Shown: positions 7,184 through 23,848 of the stretch, in pieces
How positions within the stretch are numbered: position 1 is the first letter of the stretch
Layout: each line of letters opens with the position of its first letter
NCBI GenBank assembly: GCA_965221775.1
Contig: CBDCSU010000006.1
Location: 2,400,001-2,464,000 of the forward strand
Reading direction: 5' to 3'
From: Candidatus Latescibacterota bacterium
GTDB taxonomy: Bacteria; Latescibacterota; UBA2968; UBA8231
DNA length: 64,000 bases
Notes under the pieces: model-generated
What the model was told of the DNA's origin: nothing
Seen by the model: only the letters and a program-made list of their open reading frames with translations
The model's database searches: none
Made by a program: the position numbers and the translations under genes

Positions 7184-7195
7184 GCTAACTATGCT
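7179..7195. promoter_or_regulatory. parS/operator-like 9-bp-period repeats over the parA start
   Basis: ATCATGCT-A-ACTATGCT; the same motif recurs at 10352-10427. Confidence 0.5.
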
Positions 7196-7381
7196 ACGAT
7201 GAAGACACCGCTCGCGCAAGGGAAGATCGTCGCCCCCGGAGGCTTCCGGGGCCCGATAGCCCGGAAGGGGGTTGGTTGGAGGTGGCCGGAAGGATTATCC
7301 GCCCGCCCCGTGCCCCGGCAAACACAGGCCCAAGGCCTAGCCTGCGCGTTCCGCGGGCGCGAACCCCCAGGAGAGGGGGGG

Positions 7382-7836: not shown

Positions 7837-8084
7837 GTGTAGAGAAGGACCTAAACGTTTGGCTGCCAGGGAGTTATCCCGGCACAGGTCCGACACGGCG
7901 CACCCGCAGGAAGCAGGTAGCCCCTGCCGGCTCATCCGCCGGCGCGAGGACCTTCCTGCAATCCCAGCGGCGTCGGATACCTGTCACCATCTCCGAAGGC
8001 CCCTTGCTACCTTGGTAGTCTACTTCTGAGAGCGTGTAGAGAAGCACCTAAGCGTATGACCGCCAGGGAGTTACCCCGGCACAG
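7837..8084. repeat. Pair of 51-bp direct repeats (7837-7887, 8034-8084)
   Basis: GTGTAGAGAAG(G/C)ACCTAA(A/G)CGT(T/A)TG(G/A)C(T/C)GCCAGGGAGTTA(T/C)CCCGGCACAG; 45/51 identical. Confidence 0.85.
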
Positions 8085-9159: not shown

Positions 9160-10011
9160 GTTGTTCAGCCGGACGAGACGGTTGTAATTCTCTCCGAGCT
9201 GCTGGAATGTGTCGAGCAGTTTCTGTAGTGGATTCTCTTCGGCCAGAAGTTCCCTCCCTCCTGCGGGGTGTGAGGAATGGTGGCCCCGGGTTCTTAGGAC
9301 CCCCTACCCCGAACGTCAAGGAACCCCACGGGACCCCCGCGGCCCCGACGCCGCCCGAAACCCCCCGAAATCGCCCGATCCGGCCGGCCCCGAGAATCGC
9401 CCAGGGCGAGCGGAGACGGGCCGCCAGCGCCGGATCGGCCCCGGCCGCGGGTCAGAAAGACGCCCCTCCCCCCCTCCAAGGCCGCCAGGAGCCGCCTCCG
9501 GCGCTCTGACGCCCTCCACCCCCCCAGACCCCCCGCATCAGGCCGGATCTCGCCCCCACGGGGGCCCCGAGGGCCGCCCAGGCCCGGGAACAGGGCCCCC
9601 GCGAGCGGATTCCGCACCGCCCGCGCCACGGCGCCAGCTCCCCCGACTCCCAACACCCGCGGCCCCGCCAGGCGCGCAGACGCCGCCTGAGCGGCTCCTG
9701 GAGGGCGCTGCCGAGGGCCCCGGCGCCCAGGGAGCTACACCACAACCCAAAACTTTGGTGTGAATCGAGGGCGCGGGGCACTTTGCCCCACCCGACCGAC
9801 CGCCGCGGGACCCGCGTTCGATCGGAACCCCCCCCCAGGGCCGGCACCCCGCCCTCGCGTGCCCCCTCGCGCCCGATCCACACGCTCTCGCGCCCTCGCC
9901 CCCGCCGCCGGCCCCGATCCGCGCCCGATCGCACCCTCGCCGTGGGTCCAGGCTGCGCCGATCGGGCCGTTCGAGGCCGCTTGTTACTGCCGACAATCGG
10001 CTGTAGCGCCT

Positions 10012-10328
10012 GTAACCACCCATCCCCCCCTCGATCCGCCCAACCCTCCTCGCCGGGCGCCGACGTCGTGGCCCGGATGGGATCGCCGCCGCCGGCGAGG
10101 CCATGGCCGCACGTGCCGGGAGGGCGAGTCACCGGCGGCCCTGTCCTCGCCGCTGCCCACTGTCTTGGGGGAGCTGATCGAGGCCGATTGAACCCCCGAT
10201 AAGGGACATTATCGCTGGTTCAAACCCCGGACAGCGATCCCGCCGGCCGGGATGGGGACCCGGTTTCTCCTGTCGGTAGCGGTCATTCCCCGAAGTAACC
10301 ACCCCGCCCCCTCGATCCGCGCACCCTC
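10012..10328. repeat. Direct repeat pair GTAACCACCC..CCCCCTCGATCCGC within a GATC-rich non-coding region
   Basis: Copies start at 10012 and 10295. Confidence 0.65.
10188..10223. other. dif-like tyrosine-recombinase core site (inverted arms, 6-bp spacer)
   Basis: TTGAACCCCCGATAA-GGGACA-TTATCGCTGGTTCAA; 13/15 complementary arms with the ATAA-N6-TTAT core seen in Xer/dif sites. Confidence 0.55.
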
Positions 10329-10351
10329 TCCGAGCCCCGGCGCCACCTGAT

Positions 10352-10427
10352 GGCATGATTACCCTGCTAATCATGCTTGACAAAGGCATCCTCGGCGTAT
10401 TATCATGCTCATCATGCTTACTATGAT
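10352..10427 (+). promoter_or_regulatory. Sigma70-like promoter of the small-gene array, embedded in operator-like repeats
   Basis: TTGACA 10377-10382; TATTAT/TATCAT 10398-10406; inverted repeat GCATGATTA-N6-TAATCATGC; ATCATGCT at 10370, 10402, 10411. Confidence 0.65.
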
Positions 10428-10473
10428 CGCACACACACCCGATCATCTTACTGCTGAGGCAAGGAGGAATCCC

Positions 10474-10686
10474 ATGAGTGAGTTGACCACCGACCGGGCG
10501 GCGAGGGCCGATGCCGCTGCGGCAGGCTGCCACGTGGTCGAGACGTTGGCCGAGTGCCTGCCCGATGGCTCCGGCTTTCGGACCGTGAGGCGGGTAACCC
10601 GCTTCCGGATAGACAGCAGTCACGGACCCGCTTCGGAGATTCGCGAGGCTGCCGGCGAGGCGCTACGCGATCTGTTAGGAGGCTGA
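10474..10686 (+). CDS. Small hypothetical protein, first gene of array
   Basis: AAGGAGG RBS before ATG (MSELTTDR...). Confidence 0.65.
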   Translation: MSELTTDRAARADAAAAGCHVVETLAECLPDGSGFRTVRRVTRFRIDSSHGPASEIREAAGEALRDLLGG

Positions 10687-10690
10687 GGCC

Positions 10691-11233
10691 ATGTCCAAGA
10701 CCATCCGCACCATCACACCCGAGATGCACGCGGCTCTCGACGCGGACCGTGAGGGCCGGCTGTCTCCGCAGGCTCGGAGCGCCATCGACACCGCCGAGAA
10801 GGACTGGCAGATGGCGAGCCACGCCGCCCACCCCTCGCACTTCACCTTCGACACGGCAGGCGATCGGGAGTTCCTCGTCGCCCGGCGCCGTCGCGACGGT
10901 GCGTTTCGTCGCTACATCACCGTCTGCCACCGGATCGGGCGCAACTACTACCGCCCGTCCTCTCTCCGCAAGCGCGGCCTGAGCCCGATGATGCGTACCG
11001 CCGTGGCGGCGCATGTGCGCGAGGTCCACGAGGAGATCCTGACGGTGGAGGGCACGCCGCCGTCGAGCGCGGAGCTGATGTGCCTCGCCGCCCTGTTCGC
11101 CGCCGGCAACGACGACGGGCAGATCACGCCGGGGTTGGAGGCCATCGCCGCCGAGGCGGCCCGGATCGGCTTCCACACCGCCGACACGTTGGAGACGCGG
11201 CCGGACCCCCGGCTGCCCGAGGAGGCGGCGTGA
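10691..11233 (+). CDS. Phage-like hypothetical protein
   Basis: GGAGG RBS, GC3-biased codons, 180 aa. Confidence 0.7.
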   Translation: MSKTIRTITPEMHAALDADREGRLSPQARSAIDTAEKDWQMASHAAHPSHFTFDTAGDREFLVARRRRDGAFRRYITVCHRIGRNYYRPSSLRKRGLSPMMRTAVAAHVREVHEEILTVEGTPPSSAELMCLAALFAAGNDDGQITPGLEAIAAEAARIGFHTADTLETRPDPRLPEEAA

Positions 11234-11352
11234 TGGAGTGGACCCTCCGAGAGGTCGCCGGGGTGCTGATGTTCCTCGGCGGCCCCCTCGTCATCGGCCT
11301 GCTCCCCTCGCTCGACCGGTGGTTGGCGCGCCGGCGCGAGAGGAGGGGCTGA
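11233..11352 (+). CDS. Small membrane peptide
   Basis: MEWTLREVAGVLMFLGGPLVIGLLPSLDRW...; TGATG coupling at both ends. Confidence 0.55.
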   Translation: MEWTLREVAGVLMFLGGPLVIGLLPSLDRWLARRRERRG

Positions 11353-11585
11353 TGCCCAAGCCCATGATCGACCACGAGGCGCAGATCGTGCGCCCCATCA
11401 TCGACGAGCTCCCCGGTGGGCGCTTCCGGGGCCGGGTCGGGGGCTACCGCTCGACGCTGTTCACCCATGAGGAGGACGCGCAGGACTGGTGCGCCGACAT
11501 GGCTCACGAGGGTCTGCTGTCCGAGGGCGAGGACCCGGAGGACTGGGTTGTGCTGCCGGCCACCGTTCACATGGGAGGGAGCTGA
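11352..11585 (+). CDS. Small hypothetical protein
   Basis: MPKPMIDHEAQIV...; RBS and TGATG coupling. Confidence 0.65.
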   Translation: MPKPMIDHEAQIVRPIIDELPGGRFRGRVGGYRSTLFTHEEDAQDWCADMAHEGLLSEGEDPEDWVVLPATVHMGGS

Positions 11586-11776
11586 TGGCCTACCGTGCCG
11601 GCTTCCGCGCCATCCGCCGGGTGAGCGCCAACCCCACCTACCGGGAGTGCTGCCGCCAGGCTCACCGGACCGTGTGGCAGGCTCTGCGGTGCGATCCGGG
11701 CGCCGATTGGATCGAGTGCCCCCACGGGCGCAAGCACGACACCTGCCACGACTGCTACGCCGAGAGGAGGCGCTGA
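11585..11776 (+). CDS. Small Cys/His-rich protein
   Basis: ECC..CPHGRKHDTCHDC; TGATG coupling. Confidence 0.6.
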   Translation: MAYRAGFRAIRRVSANPTYRECCRQAHRTVWQALRCDPGADWIECPHGRKHDTCHDCYAERRR

Positions 11777-11922
11777 TGGATTGGGCGCAGGTCACCCTGA
11801 TGACCGTGGTGCTTGTCGGCCCGGTCCTCGCCGTCGTGTTCGCCGTGCTGGAGTGGTGGACGTGGTGGCGCGACGAACGGCGGGGGGAGCATCCCCCGCG
11901 CCGGTGCGGGAGGCCGTCATGA
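11776..11922 (+). CDS. Small single-TM membrane protein
   Basis: MDWAQVTLMTVVLVGPVLAVVFAVLEWW; coupled start. Confidence 0.55.
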   Translation: MDWAQVTLMTVVLVGPVLAVVFAVLEWWTWWRDERRGEHPPRRCGRPS

Positions 11923-12305
11923 CCCTTCGCGCCAGGATCGTCGACGTGCGCCGCCGGATCGCCGAGGGGTGCGGGCTGGTAGCCTCGATCGAGGCCGCAT
12001 CCACCACGGACGCCGAGTACAACACCCTCATGGATCTGTGCAACGCCGCCTGTGAGGACGACTACGACGGGCCGGACATGACGGGGGATCAGGCTCTCGC
12101 GATCCTCGCCAAGATGGAGCCCGTCTGGCTCTACACCGTGGTCGAGGCTGAGATGTTCGGCTCCTCGGCCTGGCTGGTGGTGCGCGAGGACGGGGCCGTG
12201 TGCGGCTACCGGCACGGGCTGTATCCGGCCCTCGAGTACGCCGTCGAGCGCATGGAAGCCGACGAGCGCACACGCCACCTGTGGGAGGAAGCCCCTTGCC
12301 GCTGA
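11919..12305 (+). CDS. Hypothetical protein whose stop codon lies in the hammerhead core
   Basis: ATGA overlap start (MTLRARIVDV...); TGA 12303-12305 is the UGA of CUGACGA. Confidence 0.65.
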   Translation: MTLRARIVDVRRRIAEGCGLVASIEAASTTDAEYNTLMDLCNAACEDDYDGPDMTGDQALAILAKMEPVWLYTVVEAEMFGSSAWLVVREDGAVCGYRHGLYPALEYAVERMEADERTRHLWEEAPCR

Positions 12306-12368
12306 CGAGTGGGCCGGCCGGCGGGCCGGCTCCGAAATGCCCCTTCGGGGGCATACGGCTATCCCGCC
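12298..12368 (+). ncRNA. Type I hammerhead ribozyme
   Basis: GCCG-CUGACGA-G-U-GGGCCGGCC(GGCG)GGCCGGCUC-C-GAAA-UGCCCC(UUCG)GGGGCA-UA-CGGC; all core bases and three stems present; loop II GGCG can pair with CGCC 12365-12368; predicted cut after A12355. Confidence 0.9.
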
Positions 12369-12400
12369 GAGAGCACCCCGTATCCCTTCAGGAGGGAACC

Positions 12401-13069
12401 ATGACCACCTTGCAGGACATCCCGACGGCGGCGCGCCTGCGCGAGCTCGCCGCCCACGTGGAGAAGCTGCCCAGGCAGCCGCTGCGCAACGGCTGCTACA
12501 AGCCGTCGCACATGGGCACCGGCAGCCTCTACGCGCCGCCCCGCGGCTTCAACATGAGCACCTACGCCGCCGCTCACGCGGCGCCGGACGGGGGCCGGTG
12601 CAACACGGCGGCCTGCCTCGCCGGCCACGCCTGCTCCCTGTGGACCGATCTGCCGGCCCACAACTGGGACGCCCACCACGGACAGATCGCCCTGGGGCTG
12701 CGAGCCGCCGAGCGCAACTGCCTGTTCATCCCGCAGATCGCCACCCTCCACATGCGGCCCGAGGTGAACGGCACGCTGTCGGAGATCGAGCCGGCCACCG
12801 CCGCCGAGGCGTGCCGCCGGCTCGCCGACATCCGGGGCGCCGAGTACGTGCACGGCGAGCGGTGGGAGCACTGGCCGCAGTTCGCCGGCGCCCACGACAA
12901 CGCCGTGGAGCGCATGCTGACGCGGCGCCTGTGGGGCACCCTGGAGAGCCTGCGCGAGGACGCGGAGCTGTATGACGGCATCCTGTGCCCGACGTGCGGC
13001 GAGGACTTCACGCTCGACCTGGTCTGCCCGGTGTGCGACCTGCGCCGGGTGAGGGGGGCCGGCGGATGA
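12401..13069 (+). CDS. Phage-type protein with FNM..C.T.AC.AG motif and C-terminal CxxC..CxxC
   Basis: RBS GGAGGG; FNMSTY..CNTAACLAGHA; paralog of 14222-14764. Confidence 0.7.
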   Translation: MTTLQDIPTAARLRELAAHVEKLPRQPLRNGCYKPSHMGTGSLYAPPRGFNMSTYAAAHAAPDGGRCNTAACLAGHACSLWTDLPAHNWDAHHGQIALGLRAAERNCLFIPQIATLHMRPEVNGTLSEIEPATAAEACRRLADIRGAEYVHGERWEHWPQFAGAHDNAVERMLTRRLWGTLESLREDAELYDGILCPTCGEDFTLDLVCPVCDLRRVRGAGG

Positions 13070-13272
13070 TCCGGAATCGGAAGCGCCGTCAGCACCTGGA
13101 GCAGTTCGGCATCGACGGCACCGGCACGGAGACCGACCTGTCGGCTCGCGCCGCACGCCGCTACCAGCTGGCGAAGGCCGGCCATCAGTTCGCGTGGCCG
13201 TCCTACCTGTGCGGCGAGGAGCTGCCGTGTGGGATGTGCGACGCCTGCGTTCGAGGGGGGGTGTTGGACTGA
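13066..13272 (+). CDS. Small Cys-containing hypothetical protein
   Basis: ATGA overlap; C-terminal PCGMCDAC. Confidence 0.55.
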   Translation: MIRNRKRRQHLEQFGIDGTGTETDLSARAARRYQLAKAGHQFAWPSYLCGEELPCGMCDACVRGGVLD

Positions 13273-13640
13273 TGGCCATGACCATGACCCCCCTTCGGGC
13301 TCTGCGTGCCGCGCGCCGGCTGCTGACCGACAACCGGAAGTGGTGCCAGGGGGCTTCGGCCCGTGACTACGACGGGCGCGCAACCGACGTGCATGACCCC
13401 CACGCCGTGGCCTGGTGCGCCGGCGGCGCCCTGTGGAAGGTGGTCCCCGGAACCCTGCACGGCATCGACAACGACGTGTGCGATCGCGCCCTCCAGCGGC
13501 TGTGCGAGGCCGCCACGGGGGAGACGGAGGCGAAGGCCGGCGCCGCCAACCTCAACGACGACAGCGACCACGTGGCCGTGCTGGCGATGTACGACAAGGC
13601 CATCCGCTTCGAGGAGTGGGAGGAGGAAATCTACGCATGA
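13272..13640 (+). CDS. Phage protein resembling DUF6197 family, copy 1
   Basis: WCQGASARD..AVAWCAGGAL..NDDSDHVAVLAMYDKAI (family name from memory). Confidence 0.65.
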   Translation: MAMTMTPLRALRAARRLLTDNRKWCQGASARDYDGRATDVHDPHAVAWCAGGALWKVVPGTLHGIDNDVCDRALQRLCEAATGETEAKAGAANLNDDSDHVAVLAMYDKAIRFEEWEEEIYA

Positions 13641-13983
13641 CCACCCTGGAAGCTCTCCGCGCCGCGCGCCGGCTCATCACGGACCCCCGGCACTGGTGCC
13701 GGAGGTCCTCGGCGAGAGAGGCCGACGGCACCAACTGCTCTGTCCACCACCCTGGGGCTCGCAAGTTCTGCGCCGCCGGCGCCCTCTGGAAGGTCACCAA
13801 CAGCTACCTCGGCGCCGAGCGCGAGGACGGCATCTCCGAGGCCGCTTCCCTGCGGCTTGCGAGGCGGCCGGCATGAAGATCGTCGACTTCAACGACGCGG
13901 ACACCACGGACCATGTGGCGGTCCTCGCCGCCTACGACAAGGCCATCCGCTTCGAGGAATGGGAGGAGGAGATCTACGCATGA
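13637..13983 (+). CDS. DUF6197-like copy 2, -1 frameshift at ~13857
   Basis: WCRRSSARE..KFCAAGAL; ends YDKAIRFEEWEEEIYA like copy 1; CGGCTTGCGAG lacks one base relative to copy 1 CGGCTGTGCGAG. Confidence 0.65.
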
Positions 13984-14225
13984 GCACGATTCGCGTCAGC
14001 GTCAGCAGCACCACCGTGGTGCAGATCGAGAACAAGGACGCCGAGCCTCTGCTCTCGATCATGGCGCAGCCCGACAACGCCCGGCCCTTCGTGTTCGTGC
14101 ACGAGGGCGCCGAGACGACGGTCCAGCCGTCCGACAACGGGAAGCAGCTCCACAGCCGCAACGCCACCGGCCACACCGTCGACGGCGGGATCGTCGTCAC
14201 CGTGGAGGAAGGAGACGGCTCGTGA
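13980..14225 (+). CDS. Small hypothetical protein
   Basis: MSTIRVSVSS...; ATGA overlap, GGAGGAG RBS. Confidence 0.6.
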   Translation: MSTIRVSVSSTTVVQIENKDAEPLLSIMAQPDNARPFVFVHEGAETTVQPSDNGKQLHSRNATGHTVDGGIVVTVEEGDGS

Positions 14226-14764
14226 ACTTCCCCACCCACCCCGTCACCGTGGCCCGGCTCCGGGAGTTGGCCGGCCACGTCGAGGAGATGCAGCACCTGC
14301 GCTTGGTCCTGGTCGACGCGCCGCCGGTCGAGGGGGCCGTCGTGTCCACGATCGCGGGGGGTCCCGAGCACTTCGACGCCTTCAACATGTCTCGGTACGC
14401 CGTCGACACCGAGTGCGGCACGGTGGGCTGTCTCGCCGGGCTCGCGTGTGGCAAGTGGGCCGAGGACGCCGACTCGTCGTGGTGGGGGTTCGCCAGCGGC
14501 ATGCGGGCGCTGCGCTTGGACACGCAGAACAAGGAGCAGTGCGAGTGGGCGCAGGCTCTGTTCGCGCCGCCGATGGGCGACATCGAGCTCGAGAGGCTGA
14601 AACCGACGACGGCGGCTCGCGCCTGCCGACGCTTGGCGGGCCTGCTGCACGCGATCGGGCAGTCGGGCCGGCCGTGGCAGTGCCACACGGACGCGGAGAC
14701 GCTCGCCGACGCGCTGTGGGGTCCCGAGGAGATCCTCTATCACGACGAAAGGAGCCCTGTCTGA
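14222..14764 (+). CDS. Phage-type protein with FNM..CGT.GC.AG motif, paralog of 12401-13069
   Basis: ARLRELAGHVE, FNMSRY..CGTVGCLAGLA, AARACRRLA shared with the paralog. Confidence 0.7.
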   Translation: MNFPTHPVTVARLRELAGHVEEMQHLRLVLVDAPPVEGAVVSTIAGGPEHFDAFNMSRYAVDTECGTVGCLAGLACGKWAEDADSSWWGFASGMRALRLDTQNKEQCEWAQALFAPPMGDIELERLKPTTAARACRRLAGLLHAIGQSGRPWQCHTDAETLADALWGPEEILYHDERSPV

Positions 14765-15063
14765 TGCAGATTCGCAGCCTCAAGCCAGTGCGCGGCGTGC
14801 TGGTGCGGATCCATACGCACCTGCGCAACGAGCCGAGTGCCGAGGACATCCGCACGTCGATCTCCGCCGACGAGTGCCGGCTCACGGTCTCGCATTCGGT
14901 CAACGATCCGGTGCCGCACGTCGACGACCTGCTGAGGATGTGGGCCGAGCACTACGTGCGGTGCCACAAGGTGGGCGTCACCGGCCTCGAGTACCGCATG
15001 CTGCCCGAGGAGGGCAGCGACCTTCTCATGGCCGTCCGCTTCGACGGCGATCCTTCTGACTGA
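14764..15063 (+). CDS. Hypothetical protein
   Basis: AAAGGAG RBS, TGATG coupling (MQIRSLKPV...). Confidence 0.6.
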   Translation: MQIRSLKPVRGVLVRIHTHLRNEPSAEDIRTSISADECRLTVSHSVNDPVPHVDDLLRMWAEHYVRCHKVGVTGLEYRMLPEEGSDLLMAVRFDGDPSD

Positions 15064-15073
15064 AAGGAGCCCC

Positions 15074-15236
15074 ATGACCACCTTCGATCCCCCCACCAAG
15101 TCCGACGCCGTGGTGCTGCGCGAGTTCTTCCGGCGCGACGGGCAGACCCTCGACCAGTTCCACGAGGAGCTGAAGGCTGGAGCCGGCCGACAAGCAGGAG
15201 TTGGCCGCGCTGGCGCGGGAGGAGCTGGCCGCGTGA
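15074..15236 (+). CDS. Small helical phage-type protein, frameshift at ~15179
   Basis: MTTFDPPTKSDAVVLREFFRRDGQTLDQFHEELKA then LEPADKQELAALAREELAA* in another frame. Confidence 0.5.
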
Positions 15237-15367
15237 TCGCCAAGGACGTACAGGCCGTGCTGAACTCCGCCCGGCGCTGGCTGGAGGCCGCCGAGGCGGA
15301 CGACGCCGACGCGATGGCGGAGGCCGACGAGGACCTGCACCAGTGCATGGAGGAGGCGCAGCGATGA
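15233..15367 (+). CDS. Small acidic protein
   Basis: GTGA overlap, GGAGGAG RBS (VIAKDVQAVLNSARRWLEAAEADDAD...). Confidence 0.5.
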   Translation: MIAKDVQAVLNSARRWLEAAEADDADAMAEADEDLHQCMEEAQR

Positions 15368-15528
15368 CCTGTCACTGCTGCCACGCCGAGACCCCCGATC
15401 CCCTGCACCGGGTCCTCGACGGCGAGGTGAGGCACGTCTGCGAGCCGTGCGCGGAGAGCATCGACGAGGCGTTGGTCCTCGACGGGCTCAGTGCCAACCC
15501 CGCTGATCCCGTCCTGAAGGGCGGGTAG
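15364..15528 (+). CDS. Small zinc-finger protein
   Basis: MTCHCC..VCEPC; ATGA overlap. Confidence 0.55.
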   Translation: MTCHCCHAETPDPLHRVLDGEVRHVCEPCAESIDEALVLDGLSANPADPVLKGG

Positions 15529-15591
15529 GTGCCGAAACGCGGGGGCCGACCGGCCCCCGCTTCGACGGGCCGCTCCCGTCCTGACGATGGC
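15520..15591 (+). ncRNA. Type II hammerhead ribozyme
   Basis: GCC-GAAA-C-GCGGGGGCC(GACC)GGCCCCCGC-UUC-GACGGG(CCGCU)CCCGUC-CUGACGA-U-GGC; loop I CCGCU can pair with GGCGG 15520-15524; one C-U mismatch at base of stem III; predicted cut after C15563. Confidence 0.8.
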
Positions 15592-15636
15592 TTCGCCGGG
15601 GTCGCTCCCCGGCCCACATCCCACTACGGAGGGAAC

Positions 15637-16272
15637 ATGCACGACATCGAGATCGCCCCGATCCGGCCGGAGAAGTGGCCGGACGACGCGAGGGCCTGGA
15701 CGCGGTCCACGGCCGATTTCCGGCTCAACGAGCGCCTGGGGTCCGCCCTGGCGCTGACCGTGGCCGGCGAGGACTGGTGGGTGGACGGCGCCGCCTGCTT
15801 CAAGGGGACGTGCCCGAAGGGCTACCAGAAGCGGCTGATGGCCGGCCGGCGCTGGCTCGATAACCCGGACCCGGCCGGCAAGGAGGCCGCGGAGAAGATG
15901 GTCCTGAGGCTGATGAACGAGGAGCTGTCGGACCCGCGCCGGTTCGTGCCCGCGTTCACCCGGATCAAGCCGCACCACTCGGGCCGCGGCGAGCAGCACA
16001 TCGACGTGTTCGTGCCGAAGGGGGCCACGAACCTGATCAAGTGGCGCCCCTTCGAGGCCCGCTACGTCGGGTTCGCGCTGCGCCGCTTCCGGGGCTGCCG
16101 GTTCACCCTCGGCAACAAGGGCGACACCCTGATCGTGCGCGACGACACCGGGGCGATGGTGGGCGCCATCATGCGGATGTCGATCCCGGCCGACGAGCGC
16201 CGGGGCGGGAAGCGCAAGCGCAGCGTCAACGGGGTCGTGCCGGAGCCGACGGAGGCCGCGCAGGCCGCGTAG
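15637..16272 (+). CDS. Hypothetical protein
   Basis: GGAGGG RBS before MHDIEIAPIRPEKW; strong GC3 bias. Confidence 0.7.
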   Translation: MHDIEIAPIRPEKWPDDARAWTRSTADFRLNERLGSALALTVAGEDWWVDGAACFKGTCPKGYQKRLMAGRRWLDNPDPAGKEAAEKMVLRLMNEELSDPRRFVPAFTRIKPHHSGRGEQHIDVFVPKGATNLIKWRPFEARYVGFALRRFRGCRFTLGNKGDTLIVRDDTGAMVGAIMRMSIPADERRGGKRKRSVNGVVPEPTEAAQAA

Positions 16273-16275
16273 AGC

Positions 16276-16346
16276 CCTTCAGGAGACCGAAATCGGGGGC
16301 GGGCCTGGGTGCCCGCCCTCATTCCCTTCTCTCACGAACCAAGGAG
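16276..16346 (+). repeat. Degenerate hammerhead-like junction module
   Basis: GAAA-..GGGCGGGC..GCCCGCCC-TC then CTCTCAC and AAGGAG, shared with the 17375 and 20981 copies; CUGAnGA absent. Confidence 0.55.
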
Positions 16347-16354
16347 ACGGAACA

Positions 16355-16594
16355 GTGAACAAGGAGCGACGGGACCGGATCAGGGGGCTGCGCGACGAGC
16401 TCAACGCGATCCGGACGCAGATCGACGACATCGAGGCGGAGGAGCGGGAGGCGTTCGACAACCTCCCCGAGAGTCTGCAGTACGGCGAGCGCGGCGAGAC
16501 CCTGAGCGCCGCCGCCGACAGCCTCTCCGAGGCGTCCGAACAGATGGACGCGGCCGCCACCCAGCTGGAGGAAGTCATCGGGGAGGGGAGCTGA
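16355..16594 (+). CDS. Acidic coiled-coil phage protein (MNK.RR..EE.EAFDNLPE.LQ..ERGE type)
   Basis: Recognisable small phage-protein pattern; AAGGAG RBS. Confidence 0.75.
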   Translation: MNKERRDRIRGLRDELNAIRTQIDDIEAEEREAFDNLPESLQYGERGETLSAAADSLSEASEQMDAAATQLEEVIGEGS

Positions 16595-16595
16595 C

Positions 16596-17378
16596 ATGCC
16601 GCAATACTACTTCCCCGCGCCCCTGGCCGAGGAGTTCACCGGCACCCCGGACACCACCGACATCATCTCGATCTACAAGGTGACCGGCGCGGCGCACGCG
16701 CCCTACTGGCAGGCGCAGGACTCGCGCGGATTCGTGAAGGCGGAGTGGACCCCGCCGGCGCCGCTGCGCGAGGACCTGCCGGAGACCGAGCGACGGAATC
16801 TGCTGGTGGCGTGGGCGCAAGCCTACGAGCGCAGCGACCTGGTGGAGACGCCGCCGACCGGGCAGCCCGCTTGGGTGTTCGTGCATCTGCACAGCGTCAC
16901 CGCGCCGGGCAACCCCTTCTACATGTACGCGGCAGTGAGGCCGAAGGCGGGACAGGCGTTCGAGCACATCCTGCGCTACGCCTCCTACGGCCGTCCGCAG
17001 GACTGGGACTGGCTGTTCCGCGACCTGGAGGACGGCGAGGAGCATAAGCGCGGCGAGCGGCCCCTGCAGCCCGAGTTGGCCCGGCTGCCGGAGCGCGATC
17101 TCGACGCCGAGAGCAAGACCGCGCTGCCCGACGGGTCCTCCATGACCGTCCTGGCTTCGTGGCCCAACGGCTACCGGTGCTACGAGAAGCAGACCGGCAA
17201 CGAGCGCTACGAGTGGCCGGACGGGAGCGCCATCACCGTCCAGGGGCAGGTCGCTTGGGACTTCGGGTTCTACCGCGACCGGCTCGCCGATCAGGCCGTG
17301 ATCGAGGCATGCGGCGACGACGTGGCCCCGATGTTCGCGTGGCCGGGAGAGGTGGCCGTGGCTGGCGAGCTGACCTGA
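16596..17378 (+). CDS. Hypothetical protein, paralog of the IS-interrupted gene 17484-20984
   Basis: Shared AWVFV, YAAVRP, DWDWL, EW.DGSAI, FGF, AVIEAC motifs. Confidence 0.75.
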   Translation: MPQYYFPAPLAEEFTGTPDTTDIISIYKVTGAAHAPYWQAQDSRGFVKAEWTPPAPLREDLPETERRNLLVAWAQAYERSDLVETPPTGQPAWVFVHLHSVTAPGNPFYMYAAVRPKAGQAFEHILRYASYGRPQDWDWLFRDLEDGEEHKRGERPLQPELARLPERDLDAESKTALPDGSSMTVLASWPNGYRCYEKQTGNERYEWPDGSAITVQGQVAWDFGFYRDRLADQAVIEACGDDVAPMFAWPGEVAVAGELT

Positions 17379-17472
17379 CGAACAACGGCGGCTCCAAGCC
17401 GTCCTGAGCGCCGGAAACGGGCGGGCACCCCGGGTGCCCGCCCTCACCAACCTCTCTCACAACCCGCAAAGG
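17375..17472 (+). ncRNA. Hammerhead-like structured RNA module (variant)
   Basis: CUGACGA 17375-17381 (contains the stop codon), expanded stem II, GAAA 17414-17417, long GC stem, UC 17444-17445; stem I not evident. Confidence 0.5.
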
Positions 17473-17713
17473 ACCTGGAAATCATGGCGATCCATTTGGG
17501 AATTATATACGAGTTTAGCCTTGGGCCTCATGGGAACCCGTCGTACATACGGGCGCGGACTGCTTCCGCCTGTGCGGTATGTCGGGTCGCCCCTCGAATA
17601 GAACAGCCTTCGGGCGAATAGGGGGGAACTTCCCGCGAAAGCGAGGCAGTCCGCAAACGGCCCGGCGCCACGCGGGAGCGCCGGCCCCACCCCCTCACCC
17701 AAGGAGGCGGACT

Positions 17714-18252
17714 TTGCGGACTGCCCTGATCTTCTCAACCCTGCTTCTCATGGCGTGCCAGGGCCGCCCGGCCCCGTAGGACCCTCAGGCCCTCCGTCCA
17801 GAGCCAAGGCGACGACCGATCAACAGGAGACGGCCGAGTGTATCGTGAATGAGATCACGATCACCGGCGACAACGTGCAGGTGCATGGGCTGTCCGTGGC
17901 GGACTCGGTGTACTACGCACGAGACACCCTGGAAGTCACGTCGGCGTTCTCCCTGATCACCTTCGACCTCAACTACTCCACGGACATCGACCAAGGGTCC
18001 CGGAAGGGCTGGGCCTACTACGATGACGCCATCGTCGCGGATGAAGTCCAGGGGGTTTTTCTGGCGGCCACGGGAGGCTACCAGGACCCGAGCGAATGGC
18101 AGCCGTTCAACCTGCTGGCAGCAGAGGAGGCCGGGTCCGACGAGACGCCGGAGTATGAGCTTGAAGACGGGGAGATCTACATCTCAGACCCGGACGATGT
18201 ACTGGCGTCCGAGTACGACGGGACACCGGGGCGTACAGGCGCTTCGTGGTAA
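17714..18252 (+). CDS. Passenger lipoprotein with Gly-Pro stretch, frameshift at ~17762
   Basis: AAGGAGG + TTG, lipobox LLMAC, continues as GPPGPVGPSGPP in the next frame. Confidence 0.6.
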
Positions 18253-18261
18253 CGATCCTGT

Positions 18262-18453
18262 CTATCCCGGCCCAGTGAGTTCTTCACGCGGGTCAGGCGC
18301 CTTGTCAGCGTAGGCGTCTGACCCGCGCTTCAGGTACCGCCAGTTCTTCTTGGGCGGCCCCGCCATGCAGGCCCGGGCGATCTCCTCCGGTGGAGCCGGG
18401 ATCTTCTCCGGCATCACGTGCTTGGGTGGGCGGCCGCGCTTGCGCTTCGACAT
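18262..18453 (-). CDS. Small basic passenger protein
   Basis: MSKRKRGRPPKHVMPEKIPAPPEEIARACMAGPPKKNWRYLK; AT-hook-like GRP. Confidence 0.65.
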   Translation of the reverse strand: MSKRKRGRPPKHVMPEKIPAPPEEIARACMAGPPKKNWRYLKRGSDAYADKAPDPREELTGPG

Positions 18454-18474
18454 GATCCAGAATCCCCCCCCTTC

Positions 18475-18747
18475 TTATCGGCGGCGGTAGATGTCGTGCG
18501 GGCCAACGGCTAGGGCTTTGGCTACTTCGGCATCACCGACCTCGAAAATGAATCTGAACTTGTCATTGAGCCTAACGCCGTGGCAACCCTTCCATGGACT
18601 TTCTAGGGTTTCCAGGTTTCGCCCTGGCGGAACCACCCCACAGATCAACTCGGACATGGCTGAAGCCAACTCAGTTTTCATTCTGGGGGGAAGAGATCGG
18701 ACGGCTTTTTCGAACTTTTTTGGTATATCGAAGGAGGATACCTGCAT
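18475..18747 (-). CDS. RelE/HigB-superfamily toxin
   Basis: ~90 aa; FEKAVRSLP..NLETL..VRLNDKFRFIFE..VGPHDIY; AAGGAG RBS. Confidence 0.7.
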   Translation of the reverse strand: MQVSSFDIPKKFEKAVRSLPPRMKTELASAMSELICGVVPPGRNLETLESPWKGCHGVRLNDKFRFIFEVGDAEVAKALAVGPHDIYRRR

Positions 18748-18748
18748 A

Positions 18749-19216
18749 TCACTCCTTCGTTTCGAGCAGTCGGAGAAGCTCCTCCCCGCTGTGCACTCGG
18801 TGTGCAACAGGGGAGGCCCGGCCGTCATGGATCATGATGGCCCAACGCAGCTCTTGTAGAGTTTCGGCGAAGTGACCAAGCACGAGAACCATGGATCTCT
18901 TTTCGTGCGGTGACATCTCTCGCGGGACTCGACCCAGTTGCTTCACGGAAGGCCCTCCGACCAGACGATCACGCTCTTCGCAGAAGTAATCCTCAGCCTT
19001 CTTCAGCAGGTCCTTTGCGGCATCGTCAGGGTCCAATTCTTGCTCAGAAGGACATGCCTCTACGAGTCTCATAAACCCATTTGCGAAGTTGTCCATCATC
19101 TGCAGAAGGAGTGCGTATTCGTTCTGATTCTGATAGAACCAGCGAACCGCATGGACAACGTGGTGCACGCTGTCCTTATCCATCATGGGTGAGTCATGAG
19201 CTACGGCCATGCTCAT
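18749..19216 (-). CDS. Putative antitoxin
   Basis: Immediately upstream of the toxin; C-terminal HSGEELLRLL as in RelB/DinJ-like tails. Confidence 0.55.
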   Translation of the reverse strand: MSMAVAHDSPMMDKDSVHHVVHAVRWFYQNQNEYALLLQMMDNFANGFMRLVEACPSEQELDPDDAAKDLLKKAEDYFCEERDRLVGGPSVKQLGRVPREMSPHEKRSMVLVLGHFAETLQELRWAIMIHDGRASPVAHRVHSGEELLRLLETKE

Positions 19217-19320
19217 GGAGAGGGCTCCTCATCGAGGGGTTTTCAGGGTCCCATGGTACGGACGGAAACAGCCGAGCACCAAGCTGCACAAAGTAGATCT
19301 GCCCGGATGGTCACCCCCGG

Positions 19321-20300
19321 TCAGATCGCCTCACGCCGCCAAGTGGCGGACGGCTTGATCAGGTCCTTGTACCGCAGCCTCTTGAAGGCCCCTGCCCGGA
19401 CCATGCCGCGCATCTGGTCGATGGTGTCCTGGGGCCGCTGGTTGTGCCGGCCCTCGAACTCCGCGACGTAGCGCGGCAGGTGCTTGGGGCTCATCCCATG
19501 GTAGGTGCCGTGGTACCCGCGCTTCAGCATGGACCAGAAGCTCTCCAGGCCGTTGGTGTGCGCTTGGCCGTCCACCCAAGCGCCGACGGAGTGCTTGCAT
19601 GCTTGCAGGTCTGGCGTTTCCGGAGGCCCTCGTAGGACGCGTTCTCGTCAGTGTACTTGTCGGCGTCCGGCTCCACGTGGGCCGCGACGAAGCCGTGCAA
19701 GCTGGCCTTGGTGCCGTCCGGCAGCACCCTGGCGCGAACCTCATTGGTCTGGCGGTCCTTGGCGCCTACCACGATGGCCTTGCCCACGGCCCCACGTCCG
19801 GCATGGAGCTTCTTCGCGGCGTGCTTGTTGCCCTCCAAGCCGCCCACGTACGTCTCATCCAACTCGACCGGCCCGTCCATCGGCTCAGGGTCTCGGGTGG
19901 AGTCGGCCCACGTCTCCCGGATGCGGTGCGCCAAGTGCCACGCGGTCTTCTGAGTGACGCCCAGGTCGCGGTGCAGTTTCATGCTGGACGTGCCCTTCAA
20001 GCCGGTAGCCATCAGGTAGAACGCCCAGGCCCAAACCTTGAAGCCCAGCTTGGAGCCCTGCATGACGGTCCCGGTCTTCACCGAGAAGTGCCGCCGGCAG
20101 CCCCGGCAACGGTAGGGCTGCGGCTTCCGGCTCGCCACGGTCTGGATATTCAACGAACCACAGTGGGGGCAGGCAACTCCGTCCGGCCACCTGGTCTGCG
20201 CGAACCACGCCTCCGCGGCCTCGTCCGTAGGGAACTTCTCTCCCAACTCGATCAGGGTCAACCCCTCGCGGTAGTGCTTGCCGGGTGCGCTCTGTGCCAT
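19321..20300 (-). pseudogene. IS1595-family (ISXO2-like) DDE transposase broken by an 8-bp duplication
   Basis: CPHCGS/CRGC zinc ribbon, VELDETYVGG, YTDE, HTNGLESFWS; TGCTTGCA duplicated at 19592-19607. Confidence 0.92.
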
Positions 20301-20980
20301 GCTCCATGCTCTCCGATTTATGGAAGCAATTTAGCCAGGGCGCAGGCGTCAAGGGGGCCCCCCACCTCGCCGGCGAGTTCACCGGCTACCCGGAGGAAAC
20401 GGAGTTGGTGCTGGTGCGCAGCCTCAGCACCCTGCCCAACACCTGGGAGGCCATCGAAACGATCCCCCGGCCCTACGGGATGCTCGCGTGCGCCACGCTG
20501 ACGGCCGAGGGGGGGTGGAGCCCTTCACCGAGGACGACCGCAAGGACCTGCTGACCAAGTGGGCGGCAGAGTTCGACCGGCTGCGCGGCGAGGATGTGGC
20601 CCCGGTGGCCGCCTGGGTGTTCGTGGAACTGGCGCGACGGGGCACGACGCGCTACTACGCAGCGGTTCGACCGAGCGCCGGCGATGCCTTCGCCCACGTA
20701 CTCCACCACCGCTGCCACTACCGGCACGAGGACTGGGACTGGCTCCACGTCGAGAACGGCAACCGCCTGCCCGGCGTGCCGAAGCCGACCCGCTCCCCGG
20801 ACAGTGCCTACGATCGCTTCGAGTGGGGAGACGGCTCCGCCATCGTGGCCGACAGCTTCACGTGGTGGTTCGGCTTCCACTGGGGTCGCCTCACCGAGGA
20901 GGCCGTGATCGAAGCCTGCAGGGAGGTGGCCCCGGAGTGGGCCAACCCGGCGGAGGTCCACCTGCCGAGGGCAAGCTGAC

Positions 20981-21081
20981 CTGACGAAGGGAGACGGCGG
21001 CTTCAAGCCGTCTGAGCGCCGGAAAGGGGCGGGTACCTCTGGGTGCCCGCCCTCGCTTTACCCTCTCACCACTCTGGAAAG
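20981..21081 (+). ncRNA. Hammerhead-like structured RNA module (variant), sister of the 17375 copy
   Basis: CUGACGA 20981-20987, GAAA 21022-21025, GC stem, UC 21053-21054, CTCTCAC, AAAGGA. Confidence 0.5.
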
Positions 21082-21094
21082 GACCCAACCCCCT

Positions 21095-21439
21095 ATGAAC
21101 CCGCTTCGCACTACACCCCCGGCCGGCGGCGGTTCCGCACGCCCTGCCCGCCCCCGTGATCGTGGGCGGGCTGTTGGGGAACTGCGGTTTCCCGACATGT
21201 CGATCCGCCGACAGGAGGAACCCGAGTTGATGGTCCGCGACCACGCCCGGTTCTTTTCCGGGCCGTTCGCCATGACGGCCGGCTGCCACTACTGCCGCCA
21301 CACCGAGGTCGTGCGCCGCCATCCCCGCCCGGGTCGAGGCTGGGGATGGCGGGCGCGCAACGAGCTGACCCGCCGGATGCGACGGCACCTGGAGACCGAT
21401 CATCCGGAGCGCATCCGCCAGCAGAAGGAGACCCCATGA
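21095..21439 (+). CDS. Small zinc-finger-like protein
   Basis: CHYC...HLETDH (C2H2-like); RBS upstream; start uncertain. Confidence 0.55.
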   Translation: MNPLRTTPPAGGGSARPARPRDRGRAVGELRFPDMSIRRQEEPELMVRDHARFFSGPFAMTAGCHYCRHTEVVRRHPRPGRGWGWRARNELTRRMRRHLETDHPERIRQQKETP

Positions 21440-21660
21440 GCAAGCGCAAGGCCGCCCAGCGGCAGCGGTGCTACCACCTGACCGTCTGCGGGCTCAATGA
21501 CCGGCCCCACCGGGAGCGGTTCCGCTCCGACCCAGAAACCTACCAAGGGAAGGCCGTGGACCTGACCCGCGACTTGCTGCGCAACCGCTGGGGCCGGCTC
21601 TCCGTCACCAAGCCCGATGGCTCCACCTGGGACACGGACGTGCCCGGGAGCGGCCAGTGA
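21436..21660 (+). CDS. Small hypothetical protein
   Basis: AAGGAG RBS, ATGA overlap. Confidence 0.6.
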   Translation: MSKRKAAQRQRCYHLTVCGLNDRPHRERFRSDPETYQGKAVDLTRDLLRNRWGRLSVTKPDGSTWDTDVPGSGQ

Positions 21661-21977
21661 GCACGCTACACCTGATCGACCACTACTCGCGCCGCTACCG
21701 CGCCAAGGAAGGCATCGGCGGCTCGTGGACCCGGCTGGACTGCCACGCCTGCGGCGAGCTGATCGAGACGGGCTCGAAGGTGATCCTCGAGAGCCGCCCC
21801 ATGGGCAAGGCTGGCAAGCCGAACGCCTGGCACCCGGCCTGCTTCGCCGGCCAGCAGCGGGAGGCGGCCCTGGAGCGGCACCGGGCCGAGCACAACGAAT
21901 ACCCGGAGTGGATTCGCCACCAGTTCGACGAGAAGCCGCAAAGAGGGAAGCCCGACCGGGTAGCGAGTGAGCGATAG
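21657..21977 (+). CDS. Zinc-finger protein (CxxC..HxxC, PARP-type-like)
   Basis: CHACGELIETG..WHPACF. Confidence 0.6.
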   Translation: MSTLHLIDHYSRRYRAKEGIGGSWTRLDCHACGELIETGSKVILESRPMGKAGKPNAWHPACFAGQQREAALERHRAEHNEYPEWIRHQFDEKPQRGKPDRVASER

Positions 21978-22174
21978 GTCAGCCAGCCCCGAGCTGGAGC
22001 CACGGAATCGCCCCCTGGCGACAGACGAACCGGCACCCCTAAGCGCCCCCTCACAGTAGGGCCGCCCGAAAGCCGGGAGCCGGGCCACGAGATCGCCGCG
22101 ACCTGGGCAGCTTGCGCGGTTCCCGGCACGTCCCATAGATTCTCTCACGCCTCCCTGAAAGGAGCACTCCCACA

Positions 22175-22543
22175 GTGAGCGCCGCGAACGCCAAGGACCA
22201 GGTGAAGGCCTTGGAACACGAACAGATGGACCGCCTCACAGAGGCCCATGGGTTGATCGCTCAGCGCGAGGCTCTCCACAAGGGCTTGGTGTATTTCCCG
22301 AACCACCGTGGCACCATCACTCAACACATTGATGACATCGAGGCGCGCTTCAACCAGCTACGCAAAGGGAGCCGCCATGGGATGGCGTTGATGAAAACAG
22401 TCATAGAAGACTTACCTTTCTCCCCAGACCAAGCCGAGCTCATGGCGAACTACGTGCTGTTCATCGAAGGGCGGCAGTTGCCTGCGCTGCCCCCGCTGCC
22501 CAAGGGGGAGCTCCCCAAGAGCCACCGCCAGGGACGCGGCTGA
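22175..22543 (+). CDS. Hypothetical protein (lower-GC cargo)
   Basis: AAAGGAG RBS; codon usage differs from the upstream array. Confidence 0.6.
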   Translation: MSAANAKDQVKALEHEQMDRLTEAHGLIAQREALHKGLVYFPNHRGTITQHIDDIEARFNQLRKGSRHGMALMKTVIEDLPFSPDQAELMANYVLFIEGRQLPALPPLPKGELPKSHRQGRG

Positions 22544-22562
22544 CAGAGAGGAACACGCACCC

Positions 22563-23093
22563 ATGATTGAACCTGTCCTGAAAGCAAAGTTGACTCGTAG
22601 CGTCTCGCGCTTCCTTCTGAGGCTGGAGGACCTGTTCGGGCCCCGTGACCGTCGATTTCCCTCCGTGGAGGTTGACCGATGGGAGTCTGTCTCCAAGGGG
22701 CCTTCCCAGATCTATAGCGCGGTGGATGGTCGCGTCACCATCATGATCACCGCGCACGTGAGCAACCTCGGAGCCCTGTGGGAGTTGGCGCATGAATGCG
22801 TCCATCTTCTGAACCCGTGGATCCCGGACATAGAAGGGATGCCGACCAACGTCCTCGAGGAGGGGCTGGCCTCTTGGTTTCAGAATTGCGTTGCCCATGA
22901 AAGCAGGGGGGAACTTCTGCCGGCCTACGCACGGGCCGAAGCTCTGGTGCGTCCGCACATGGTTGTTCTCCCCCCTGCCATTCGGCGCCTGCGCGAACAG
23001 GGCGTCCGCATCGGGGAGATCAACCCATCCCACCTCCACAGGGTCGTCGACTCCGCAACGGCGGAGCAACTGTGCCAGCGGTGGGCAGGGTAG
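22563..23093 (+). CDS. ImmA/IrrE-like HExxH zinc metallopeptidase
   Basis: ELAHECVHLL ... LEEGLA. Confidence 0.7.
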   Translation: MIEPVLKAKLTRSVSRFLLRLEDLFGPRDRRFPSVEVDRWESVSKGPSQIYSAVDGRVTIMITAHVSNLGALWELAHECVHLLNPWIPDIEGMPTNVLEEGLASWFQNCVAHESRGELLPAYARAEALVRPHMVVLPPAIRRLREQGVRIGEINPSHLHRVVDSATAEQLCQRWAG

Positions 23094-23355
23094 AGCTACA
23101 GGATTGATGCCGGTTGGCAGGTTGCGCCGGCTGCGCGCCTGCCATCGACGTCGGAACCCTTGATCGTCTGCGGAGGTCGTTCTAGCCGTCAACTCGTCGT
23201 AGGCAAAGCAGGAGAGGCCCGCCCCCTCTGCGGATCGGGAGCGTCGCTCCGTTCTTCCCCCCCTCGAGAGCCAGAGGGAGAGAACCTTTCTGTCACCTCC
23301 CCCCTCCAACCGCTGGACCGCTGTCGTCGCCGCGTTCATTCTCGCCACGGGGGCT

Positions 23356-23676
23356 GTGGTTTCCGTGAAGCTGTGGGCCGATGCCTATACCTACGTCGCG
23401 TCCATGTACGGCTCCCAACGCTACGCGATCGCGCCGACCGGGCGATGGGGGGTGGCCTACGTAGTGGACAAGCAGACCGGGAAGACATGGTACATCCGAG
23501 GTGCCAACAGGTTTCTATCTCGCGCCCCTCGCGAAGCGAAAGAGAAGGCCGTGACTACACCTGTACCAGAAACTCCGGTCAGCCAGTTCCCCGGTTTTGC
23601 TGAATGGGCCAAACACGAGTTGGCCAAAGAGGAATCGGCCGAATCTGTTCCTGCGAGGTCCCATGTCAGCCCGTAG
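23356..23676 (+). CDS. Hypothetical protein, possibly membrane-anchored
   Basis: RYAIAPTG..AYVVDKQTGKTW; the open frame extends upstream through a hydrophobic stretch. Confidence 0.45.
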   Translation: MVSVKLWADAYTYVASMYGSQRYAIAPTGRWGVAYVVDKQTGKTWYIRGANRFLSRAPREAKEKAVTTPVPETPVSQFPGFAEWAKHELAKEESAESVPARSHVSP

Positions 23677-23767
23677 TGGCCCGTGGCAAATGTGGGCAGT
23701 ATCGTGGGGGAAGAACACAGTCAACTTCGTAAGCGCAATCAAATCAATCACTTTAGATGGCAAGTTG

Positions 23768-23787
23768 GATTCCCACCTTCGGCACCA
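23768..23787 (+). other. att site: duplicated 3' end of a tRNA (Leu-like)
   Basis: GATTCCCAC-CTTCGGC-A-CCA = 3' T-arm half, acceptor strand and CCA; no 5' tRNA half; preceded by an AT-rich IHF-like tract and GTGG repeats. Confidence 0.8.
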
Positions 23788-23848
23788 ACCTGTGTTCCCG
23801 CCTGTTCCCCCCTTGCCCCATAGGTCGGTCCTCCAAAGGGGCTCGCCC

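Follow-up and report, generated by a model that had tools for sequence, protein, structure and literature searches.

Candidate hammerhead ribozymes and a 52-nt repeat in the gaps of a small-gene array on a plasmid-like island of a Candidatus Latescibacterota genome

We analyzed a stretch of 64,000 nucleotides (nt) from Candidatus Latescibacterota bacterium (assembly GCA_965221775.1, contig CBDCSU010000006.1, positions 2,400,001 to 2,464,000), hereafter the window, which has a GC content of about 70% and carries an array of small genes at positions 10352-22175, inside an island that spans roughly 6-28 kb. A preliminary description of this DNA, made from the sequence alone, had proposed that six hammerhead or hammerhead-like ribozyme modules cut the transcript of the array into sub-operon mRNAs. 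Two of the six are retained here as candidates, one of type I in the gap between genes g7 and g8 (HH1) and one of type II in the g16/g17 gap (HH2), and three of the others contain copies of a 52-nt repeat, here called class B. The best overall explanation, to which we give slightly better than an even chance as a whole, is that the region is a single regulated operon of orphan small genes on an integrated, decayed, plasmid-like island, with a transcript that would be processed at HH1 and possibly at HH2 and that carries class-B modules in further gaps.

Results

An array of coupled small genes behind one promoter cluster

The array consists of about 25 genes on the plus strand, with a coding-type GC content at third codon positions (GC3) of about 0.8-0.96, and most of their junctions overlap as ATGA, TGATG or GTGA. 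Six gaps of more than 80 nt break this coupling, namely g7/g8, g16/g17, g17/g18, the regions 3' of g19 and 3' of the g19 paralog, and g23/g24. A stable fold was predicted in each of the six gaps, with z-scores of -2.5 to -3.95 for the five that were folded for this purpose, and every gap closes with a pyrimidine-rich leader and a GGAG-type ribosome-binding site (RBS), as the preliminary description had stated.

The single promoter that it had placed ahead of about 25 coupled genes was also recovered, with mostly overlapping genes downstream: a cluster of sigma-70-like sites at 10355-10427 accounts for three of the four promoter-like sites in 9800-23200, against 0.6 expected. In the best of these, 18 nt separate TTGACA (10377) from TATCAT, and 11 of 12 positions match. 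The promoter/operator region (10352-10427, plus strand) also holds a 9-bp inverted repeat that spans the -35 box of the array promoter, and three copies of ATCATGCT (10370-10418). This motif occurs four times in the window, where 0.8 copies would be expected, and its fourth copy lies at the promoter (7179-7186) of a gene for a ParA-like ATPase (6422-7219, minus strand; the Pfam match is confined to the N-terminus). Since ATCATGCT marks both promoters and the array promoter has an inverted repeat in addition, a common repressor is suggested, perhaps the ribbon-helix-helix (RHH) protein encoded at 6333-6560 (minus strand; Antitox_RHH, E 2.4e-12). Immediately 5' of the array promoter, positions 9300-10100 are very C-rich and gene-poor, with a GC skew of -0.18 and without a convincing open reading frame (ORF).

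A candidate type-I hammerhead between g7 and g8

Across the window, no Rfam family scored at or above its gathering cut-off, and no hammerhead model gave a match at E ≤ 10 over 9500-23500 (14 kb), for which reason we wrote our own descriptor. It covers all three hammerhead topologies, demands the exact core and three stems, tolerates one bulge, and was run on both strands of the 5.36-Mb genome, in a strict form with at least 4 bp per stem and a looser form that admits stems of 3 bp. The core positions tested were C3, U4, G5, A6, N7, G8, A9, G12, A13, A14, A15.1, U16.1 and H17, and the core-adjacent pairs were 10.1-11.1, 1.1-2.1 and 15.1-16.1. As acceptance criteria we used those given by Perreault et al. 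(2011; PMC3088659), that is, an exact core, G-C, C-G and A-U pairs adjacent to the core, and no multiple bulges in short stems. The gathering cut-offs of the Rfam models are 34 bits for RF00163 (Hammerhead_1) and 37 bits for RF02276 (Hammerhead_II). Pseudoknots were considered as a further criterion; they are carried by about 40% of the known members and, with at least 4 bp between loop I and the tail that follows stem II, by a majority of type II members.

The type-I candidate, HH1 (12298-12359, plus strand), has all of these core elements in place. Its stem I pairs GCCG with CGGC, and the core, composed of CUGACGA (12302-08), GAAA (12334-37), U12354 and A12355, is an exact match. Stem II (12309-12333) has 10 bp with a single bulged U and a GGCG loop, while stem III (12337-12354) has 7 bp and a UUCG loop. 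The core-adjacent pairs are all standard (G12309-C12333, C12356-G12301 and A12337-U12354), and HH1 agrees with all three acceptance criteria of PMC3088659. It is the only site in the genome that passes the strict descriptor, and its strength was matched in none of 200 shuffles of the window. The hammerhead fold lies 2.7 kcal/mol above the minimum free energy (MFE) structure, which keeps stems II and III. As judged from its sequence and predicted folds, HH1 most likely self-cleaves after A12355. Hammerheads follow the NUH cleavage rule, under which AUA is a good triplet.

With the looser descriptor, 26 sites were found in the genome, as compared to 30.7 per shuffled genome. When the 26 sites are ranked by paired bases, HH1 comes first (21) and HH2 second (19); the two lie 3.2 kb apart, both on the sense strand and both in gaps of the array. 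Among 307 sites from 10 shuffled genomes, none reaches 21 paired bp and two reach 19. Because shuffled sequences lack natural hairpins, the real genome was also searched for pairs of strong hairpins that lie next to each other (24,857), and the chance that such a pair acquires all the additions needed for type I was put at about 1e-6 per genome by a rough composition estimate. The third-ranked site (G000:C6:2071510; L011 4982-5069), which is located outside the window and is of type III with stems of 7, 7 and 4 bp, is probably a chance match with loops of very large size.

A type-II candidate between g16 and g17

The elements of HH2 (15531-15591, plus strand) follow the type-II order, with GAAA (15534-37), stem III, U15562, C15563, the stem I hairpin and CUGACGA (15581-87), and its core is also exact. 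Stem III (15537-15562) consists of an A-U pair, a C.U mismatch and then 9 bp, and stem I is a hairpin (15564-15580) of 6 bp. Stem II pairs GCC with GGC and forms only if U15588, an extra U after A9, is bulged; the site passes the descriptor only once 3-bp stems are allowed. Two of the core-adjacent pairs, 1.1-2.1 (G-C) and 15.1-16.1 (A-U), are standard. The centroid structure of the isolated 61-nt element is a type-II junction, and RF02276 was the top of 17 weak Rfam matches on a 131-nt slice around it, with an alignment over the full length. HH2 possibly cleaves after C15563.

A 52-nt repeat in the other gaps

The four remaining modules of the preliminary description, at 16276, 17375, 20981 and 22022, fail every descriptor setting that demands three stems, and of its six hammerheads only those at 12298, as a full type I, and at 15520, as a type II with defects, are kept. 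The sequence CUGANGA is absent from the vicinity of module 16276, which was rejected on that ground. Modules 17375 and 20981 hold core words in type-I order and were tried as hammerheads with an irregular stem II, and they were discarded for having no stem I, an A.G mismatch at 10.1/11.1 and a CUG that is paired in the MFE structure. In module 22022 the claimed core reads CAGACGA, which is a core mismatch, and the only feature shared with class B is the CTCTCAC box. The proposed self-processing of the polycistron is thus plausible at 12355 and possible at 15563, the two cut sites that had been named, and unsupported at the four other modules because these contain a different repeat or no core.

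The class-B repeat has three copies, located in the gaps IG3, IG4 and IG5, and is laid out as GAAA, one or two bases, a GC hairpin of 10-11 bp with the invariant 3' arm GGGTGCCCGCCCTC, and a (T/C)CTCTCAC box. Copy 1 (16289-16340, plus strand), in the g17/g18 gap (IG3), has a 10-bp GC hairpin and the TCTCTCAC box at 16328-35. In IG4 (17375-17465, plus strand), an irregular hairpin (17375-17414), in which the CUG of the would-be core is paired, precedes copy 2 (17414-17465), and IG5 (20981-21074, plus strand) likewise combines an irregular hairpin with copy 3 (21023-21074). IG5 and IG4 are 90% identical over 62 nt and lie at the ends of two paralogous genes within a duplicated segment, for which reason modules 17375 and 20981 count as one event. 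The structured gap IG6 (21978-22174, plus strand; 197 nt) carries only the TCTCTCAC box, at 22141-48.

The 14-mer arm has three exact copies in the window, each within one of these modules, and no further copy of the repeat was found in the genome. The motif YCTCTCAC occurs at four sites in the 64 kb, all of which are in IG3-IG6, on the plus strand and 19-26 nt 5' of a start codon; the total of four is not above chance, whereas the placement is non-random. A scan for U-tailed terminators, which cannot judge U-less ones, gave two sites in 9800-23200 against 5.0 expected, none of them at a module. The class-B hairpins were considered as canonical intrinsic terminators and rejected, as no U tract follows the GC hairpin. 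Class B is taken to be a real array-specific element that is not a hammerhead, and its most likely role would be that of an intercistronic stabilizer or U-less attenuator joined to a translation-initiation leader. The repeat resembles the 5' part of HH2, with CC-GAAA, an unpaired base, a hairpin and U-C, a likeness that would allow for a common origin.

Stop codons within the core words

The preliminary description had noted that the UGA of CTGACGA serves as the stop codon of the upstream gene. This holds for g7, whose stop codon (12303-05) is U4-G5-A6 of HH1, and for g19 (17376-78, inside CCTGACGAA). The third UGA (20982-84) is a stop codon only in a frame that requires a frameshift, as had been conceded, and the high-GC3 ORF ends at 20979. 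The footprint of a ribosome terminating at g7 would extend over stem I, the core and one half of stem II, and HH1 folding and g7 termination would therefore be mutually exclusive on geometrical grounds, an exclusion that may have no regulatory meaning. As for the idea that cleavage is coupled to translation termination, the overlap is found twice independently, in g7 and in the g19 family, and yet it is weak evidence because any ORF that enters CUGANGA in that frame must stop there.

Mosaicism and rarity of the element

Relatives of the element are present in public sequencing runs from four studies, with five rows that shared 85-100% of the words and three that shared 5-8%, and none of the 12 runs listed is recorded as RNA. 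For the comparison we used contigs of four runs (X5-X8), and these represent mosaic relatives with roughly 85-98% identity. Three variants lack g16, and each of them rejoins the window at or just 5' of the HH2 segment made up of GCC-GAAA-C and stem III. In two of the three, UNCG-type tetraloops replace the loop of that stem. In one X5 contig, the HH2 leader (15622) is followed by 34 other letters and the RBS of g8 (12393), such that an HH2-type module precedes g8. Other mosaic joints are found inside genes, one of them linking 11912 to 15281. A module is thus often, but not always, the site of a mosaic boundary, and the suggestion that modules act as recombination points finds some support in the gene swaps that are joined within or next to modules 1 and 2.

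The element is rare. Nothing was found among phages by a blastn search with 10352-17470, and in the viral contigs (viral_contigs) g17 produced 32 pattern stretches of which none was confirmed, g19 produced none, and g8 was matched at one locus (L005) with 30% identity. A search of a large protein set recovered one homolog of g17 with 95% identity among 354 candidates, and an alignment of g17 gave 48 stretches in GTDB genomes (genome_contigs) and 402 in JGI metagenomes (metagenome_contigs), none of them confirmed. The DNA pattern of HH2 had no match in metagenome_contigs or viral_contigs, nor did that of HH1 in genome_contigs. Homologs of g19 were found in none of 60 related genomes, while two of the 75 genomes searched within the order have a g17 homolog of at most 32% identity, at loci that share no other gene of the array. 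When the descriptor was applied to distant loci, it gave one weak match in L009, on the strand opposite to the g17 homolog, and none in L010 or L005.

Discussion

Processing of the transcript and alternative explanations

In the explanation that we favor, one regulated promoter would produce a long transcript of the early or leading type, punctuated by two kinds of RNA module, those with hammerhead architecture and the 52-nt class-B repeat. Cleavage of HH1 after A12355, and possibly of HH2 after C15563, would divide it into pieces that carry g1-g7, g8-g16 and g17 onwards. The upstream pieces would keep GC-rich hairpins at their 3' ends, while the downstream pieces would begin with a 5'-OH leader, which after HH2 would open with a 5' hairpin, and would reach a strong RBS after about 45-70 nt. 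In bacterial mRNA decay, GC hairpins at the 3' end and a 5'-OH or 5' hairpin are expected to slow the entry of exonucleases and RNase E.

Several observations weigh against this explanation. A search with the Rfam hammerhead models, which the preliminary description had named as a check, brought no model to its gathering score, and HH1 is missing from the RF00163 results at the gathering threshold and, at E ≤ 10, from those for the 14 kb, for a 131-nt slice and for the whole genome, a search in which 150 of 579 candidates were scored. RF02276 gave HH2 16.5 bits against its cut-off of 37 (E 0.34), which is no better than its best background matches in the genome (20.2 and 17.1 bits), and HH2 was not among the genome-wide matches of this model. 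The single strict match compares with 1.17 per shuffled genome (n=12), so that the count is not significant. Stem I of HH1 is only 4 bp long, and in the MFE structure the core is covered by a hairpin of 5 bp. The GGCG of its loop II can pair with CGCC at 12365-68, a 4-nt match that 1999 of 5000 shuffled tails also contain and that is not significant, and an extended match of 7 nt between loop II and the tail, reached by 90 of 5000 shuffles, is at most suggestive. In the X7 relative, 31 nt at 12290-12320, corresponding to the 5' half of HH1, are swapped for 199 letters. In HH2, pair 10.1/11.1 is U15588.C15533, which the rules of PMC3088659 reject, 15.2/16.2 is C.U, and stem II has only 3 bp. 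The best Watson-Crick run for an HH2 pseudoknot is 3 nt, equaled by 4804 of 5000 shuffled tails, and the hammerhead fold lies 13 kcal/mol above the MFE structure in an 81-nt context that includes 11 upstream coding bases. Finally, none of the 14 pairs of the class-B hairpin shows a compensatory change among the three sequences.

These observations could also be read to mean that no module cleaves, in which case the gaps would hold ordinary GC-rich intercistronic hairpins, acting as U-less attenuators or stabilizers of 3' ends, and the core words at 12302 and 15581 would be coincidences or dead relics. The failure or background scores of the Rfam models, a strict count equal to the shuffle expectation, the competing folds and the deviation of HH2 from a published pairing rule all fit this reading, and a genome of 70% GC with 24,857 hairpin pairs offers ample raw material. 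Such chance would nevertheless have had to place the two best-paired sites of the genome in the sense strand of one 12-kb array, both in gaps, with cores and element spacing exact to the base and, for HH1, at an estimated rate of about 1e-6 per genome. We therefore regard this reading as rather unlikely, although it deserves serious weight. At the other extreme stands the full model of the preliminary description, in which all six modules are hammerheads or hammerhead-like and divide the polycistron into sub-operon mRNAs. The succession of GAAA, a GC hairpin and UC does recur in five of the modules and CTGACGA in four of the six, but four modules are contradicted by their sequences, which have no CUGANGA, no stem I or a core mismatch, and two of these (17375 and 20981) are a single duplicated sequence with the CUG paired in the fold. 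We consider this model extremely improbable.

The likeness between HH2 and class B raises the question of how the two kinds of module are related. Class B could represent decayed or half hammerheads that arose from type-II units similar to HH2, lost the CUGANGA strand together with stem I, and were kept for their hairpin. In HH2 as in class B, CC(G)GAAA is followed by a single unpaired base, a long GC hairpin and U-C, and IG4 and IG5 retain an upstream CUGACGA in type-I order; the likeness is short and GC-rich, however, no intermediate forms were seen among the sequences compared, and the invariant 3' arm suggests recent copying rather than decay. Such an origin seems to us distinctly improbable. 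A broader proposal is that the array uses two interchangeable RNA punctuations, namely long-stem, high-GC hammerheads that the models miss and a 52-nt module with GAAA, a hairpin, UC and CUCUCAC that could be a hammerhead-derived half-site or a new processing and stability signal, both of which would serve as patches of homology for cassette swaps; this we think unlikely.

Comparison with known systems

U-less intrinsic terminators and stabilizer hairpins are known from high-GC bacteria and phages, for example the early-region terminators of phiC31. Class B resembles them in that GC hairpins without a U tract stand between blocks of early-operon genes, ahead of a leader and an RBS, and differs in being more specific, as a repeat of 52 nt that combines an invariant arm with a CTCTCAC box. 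The two candidates share core words, element order and a three-way junction with RF00163 and RF02276, the latter of which aligns to HH2 from end to end, whereas the scores are far below the gathering cut-off and the tail that forms the type-II pseudoknot has no counterpart in HH2.

The idea of a polycistron processed by ribozymes is not new, since clustered hammerheads of types I, II and III in prophages were published in 2011 (PMC3088659). Hundreds of hammerheads close to prophage genes of bacteria are reported by Perreault et al. (2011), along with clusters that flank single genes or short blocks of varying identity, and stem II can have as few as two pairs. One of the clusters flanks the anti-restriction gene ardA. 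They proposed that a long transcript is divided into gene- or operon-length mRNAs and demonstrated the processing of polycistronic fragments of about 2 kb in vitro for three clusters, from three species (PMC3088659). The array resembles these clusters in having sense-strand motifs of mixed types in the gaps of a mobile-element operon with small, variable and mostly uncharacterized genes. It differs in having at most two qualifying sites with unusually long GC stems that Rfam misses, one of which (HH2) breaks the pairing rule, and in a setting that is plasmid-like (ParA and RHH) and not clearly that of a prophage, with no integrase or phage structural gene in view.

What is particular here is accordingly modest and consists of the long GC stems that Rfam fails to recognize, the plasmid-like setting and the new 52-nt companion repeat. 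If HH1 cleaves, hammerheads with long GC stems in high-GC bacteria would escape Rfam and ribozyme censuses would be undercounts, and the class-B repeat would be another uncatalogued RNA module that shares an array with hammerheads. Ribozymes that cut mobile-element operons are already established, and the gain is in that respect incremental.

Gene content and genomic context

Most genes of the array are orphans; g10 belongs to DUF6197, and g18 matches phrog_4068. The translationally coupled ORFs g1-g7 (10474-12305) are followed by g8-g16 (12401-15528), among which g13 is a paralog of g8. Gene g11 (13637-13983, plus strand) is a frameshifted tandem paralog of g10, and the 3' ends of the two are nearly identical (repeat D1, 77% over 113 nt). 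Next in order are g17 (15637-16272; 211 amino acids), which is the best-conserved array gene among the relatives, and g18 and the 260-amino-acid g19 (together 16355-17378). The paralog of g19 (20357-20984) is truncated and frameshifted, and three coupled small genes, g21-g23, are located at 21095-21977. All of these are on the plus strand.

The start of the g19 paralog is split by an insertion of lower GC content and about 2.86 kb (17498-20356). It contains an ORF of 165 amino acids, a HigB-like ORF (18475-18828, minus strand; 26 bits against a cut-off of 27) and a frameshift-split transposase of the IS1595 family (19321-20300, minus strand). Coverage of the insertion-sequence part is very high in each of the four runs compared (X5-X8), so that it is multi-copy there. 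Contigs of X6 and X7 lack 17473/17498-20356, and module 4 (IG4) runs straight into an intact start of the g19 paralog; since the segment is missing in these two, it represents a later insertion. A weak full-length match to sRNA-Xcc1 of Rfam lies within it (17581-17674, plus strand; 34.3 bits against a gathering score of 53, E 0.0076). This family is described as linked to integron cassettes, and the match prompted an integron-cassette reading of the array, which was set aside since most of the genes overlap without spacers.

The island is bordered on the left by a gene for a TonB-dependent receptor (2846-5596, minus strand) and on the right by mfd (30140-33550), and its left part carries the partition genes for the ParA-like ATPase and the RHH protein. 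No tRNA was found in the window, and no integrase, capsid or conjugation genes turned up among the window ORFs that were scanned. A gene-poor stretch of the island contains two direct repeats of 51 nt (7837-7887 and 8034-8084) that are 88% identical and 197 nt apart. The right part of the island, which has a lower GC content, encodes a protein of 1527 amino acids (23597-28180, plus strand) with collagenase (Peptidase_M9), WD40 propeller and Big_1 domains.

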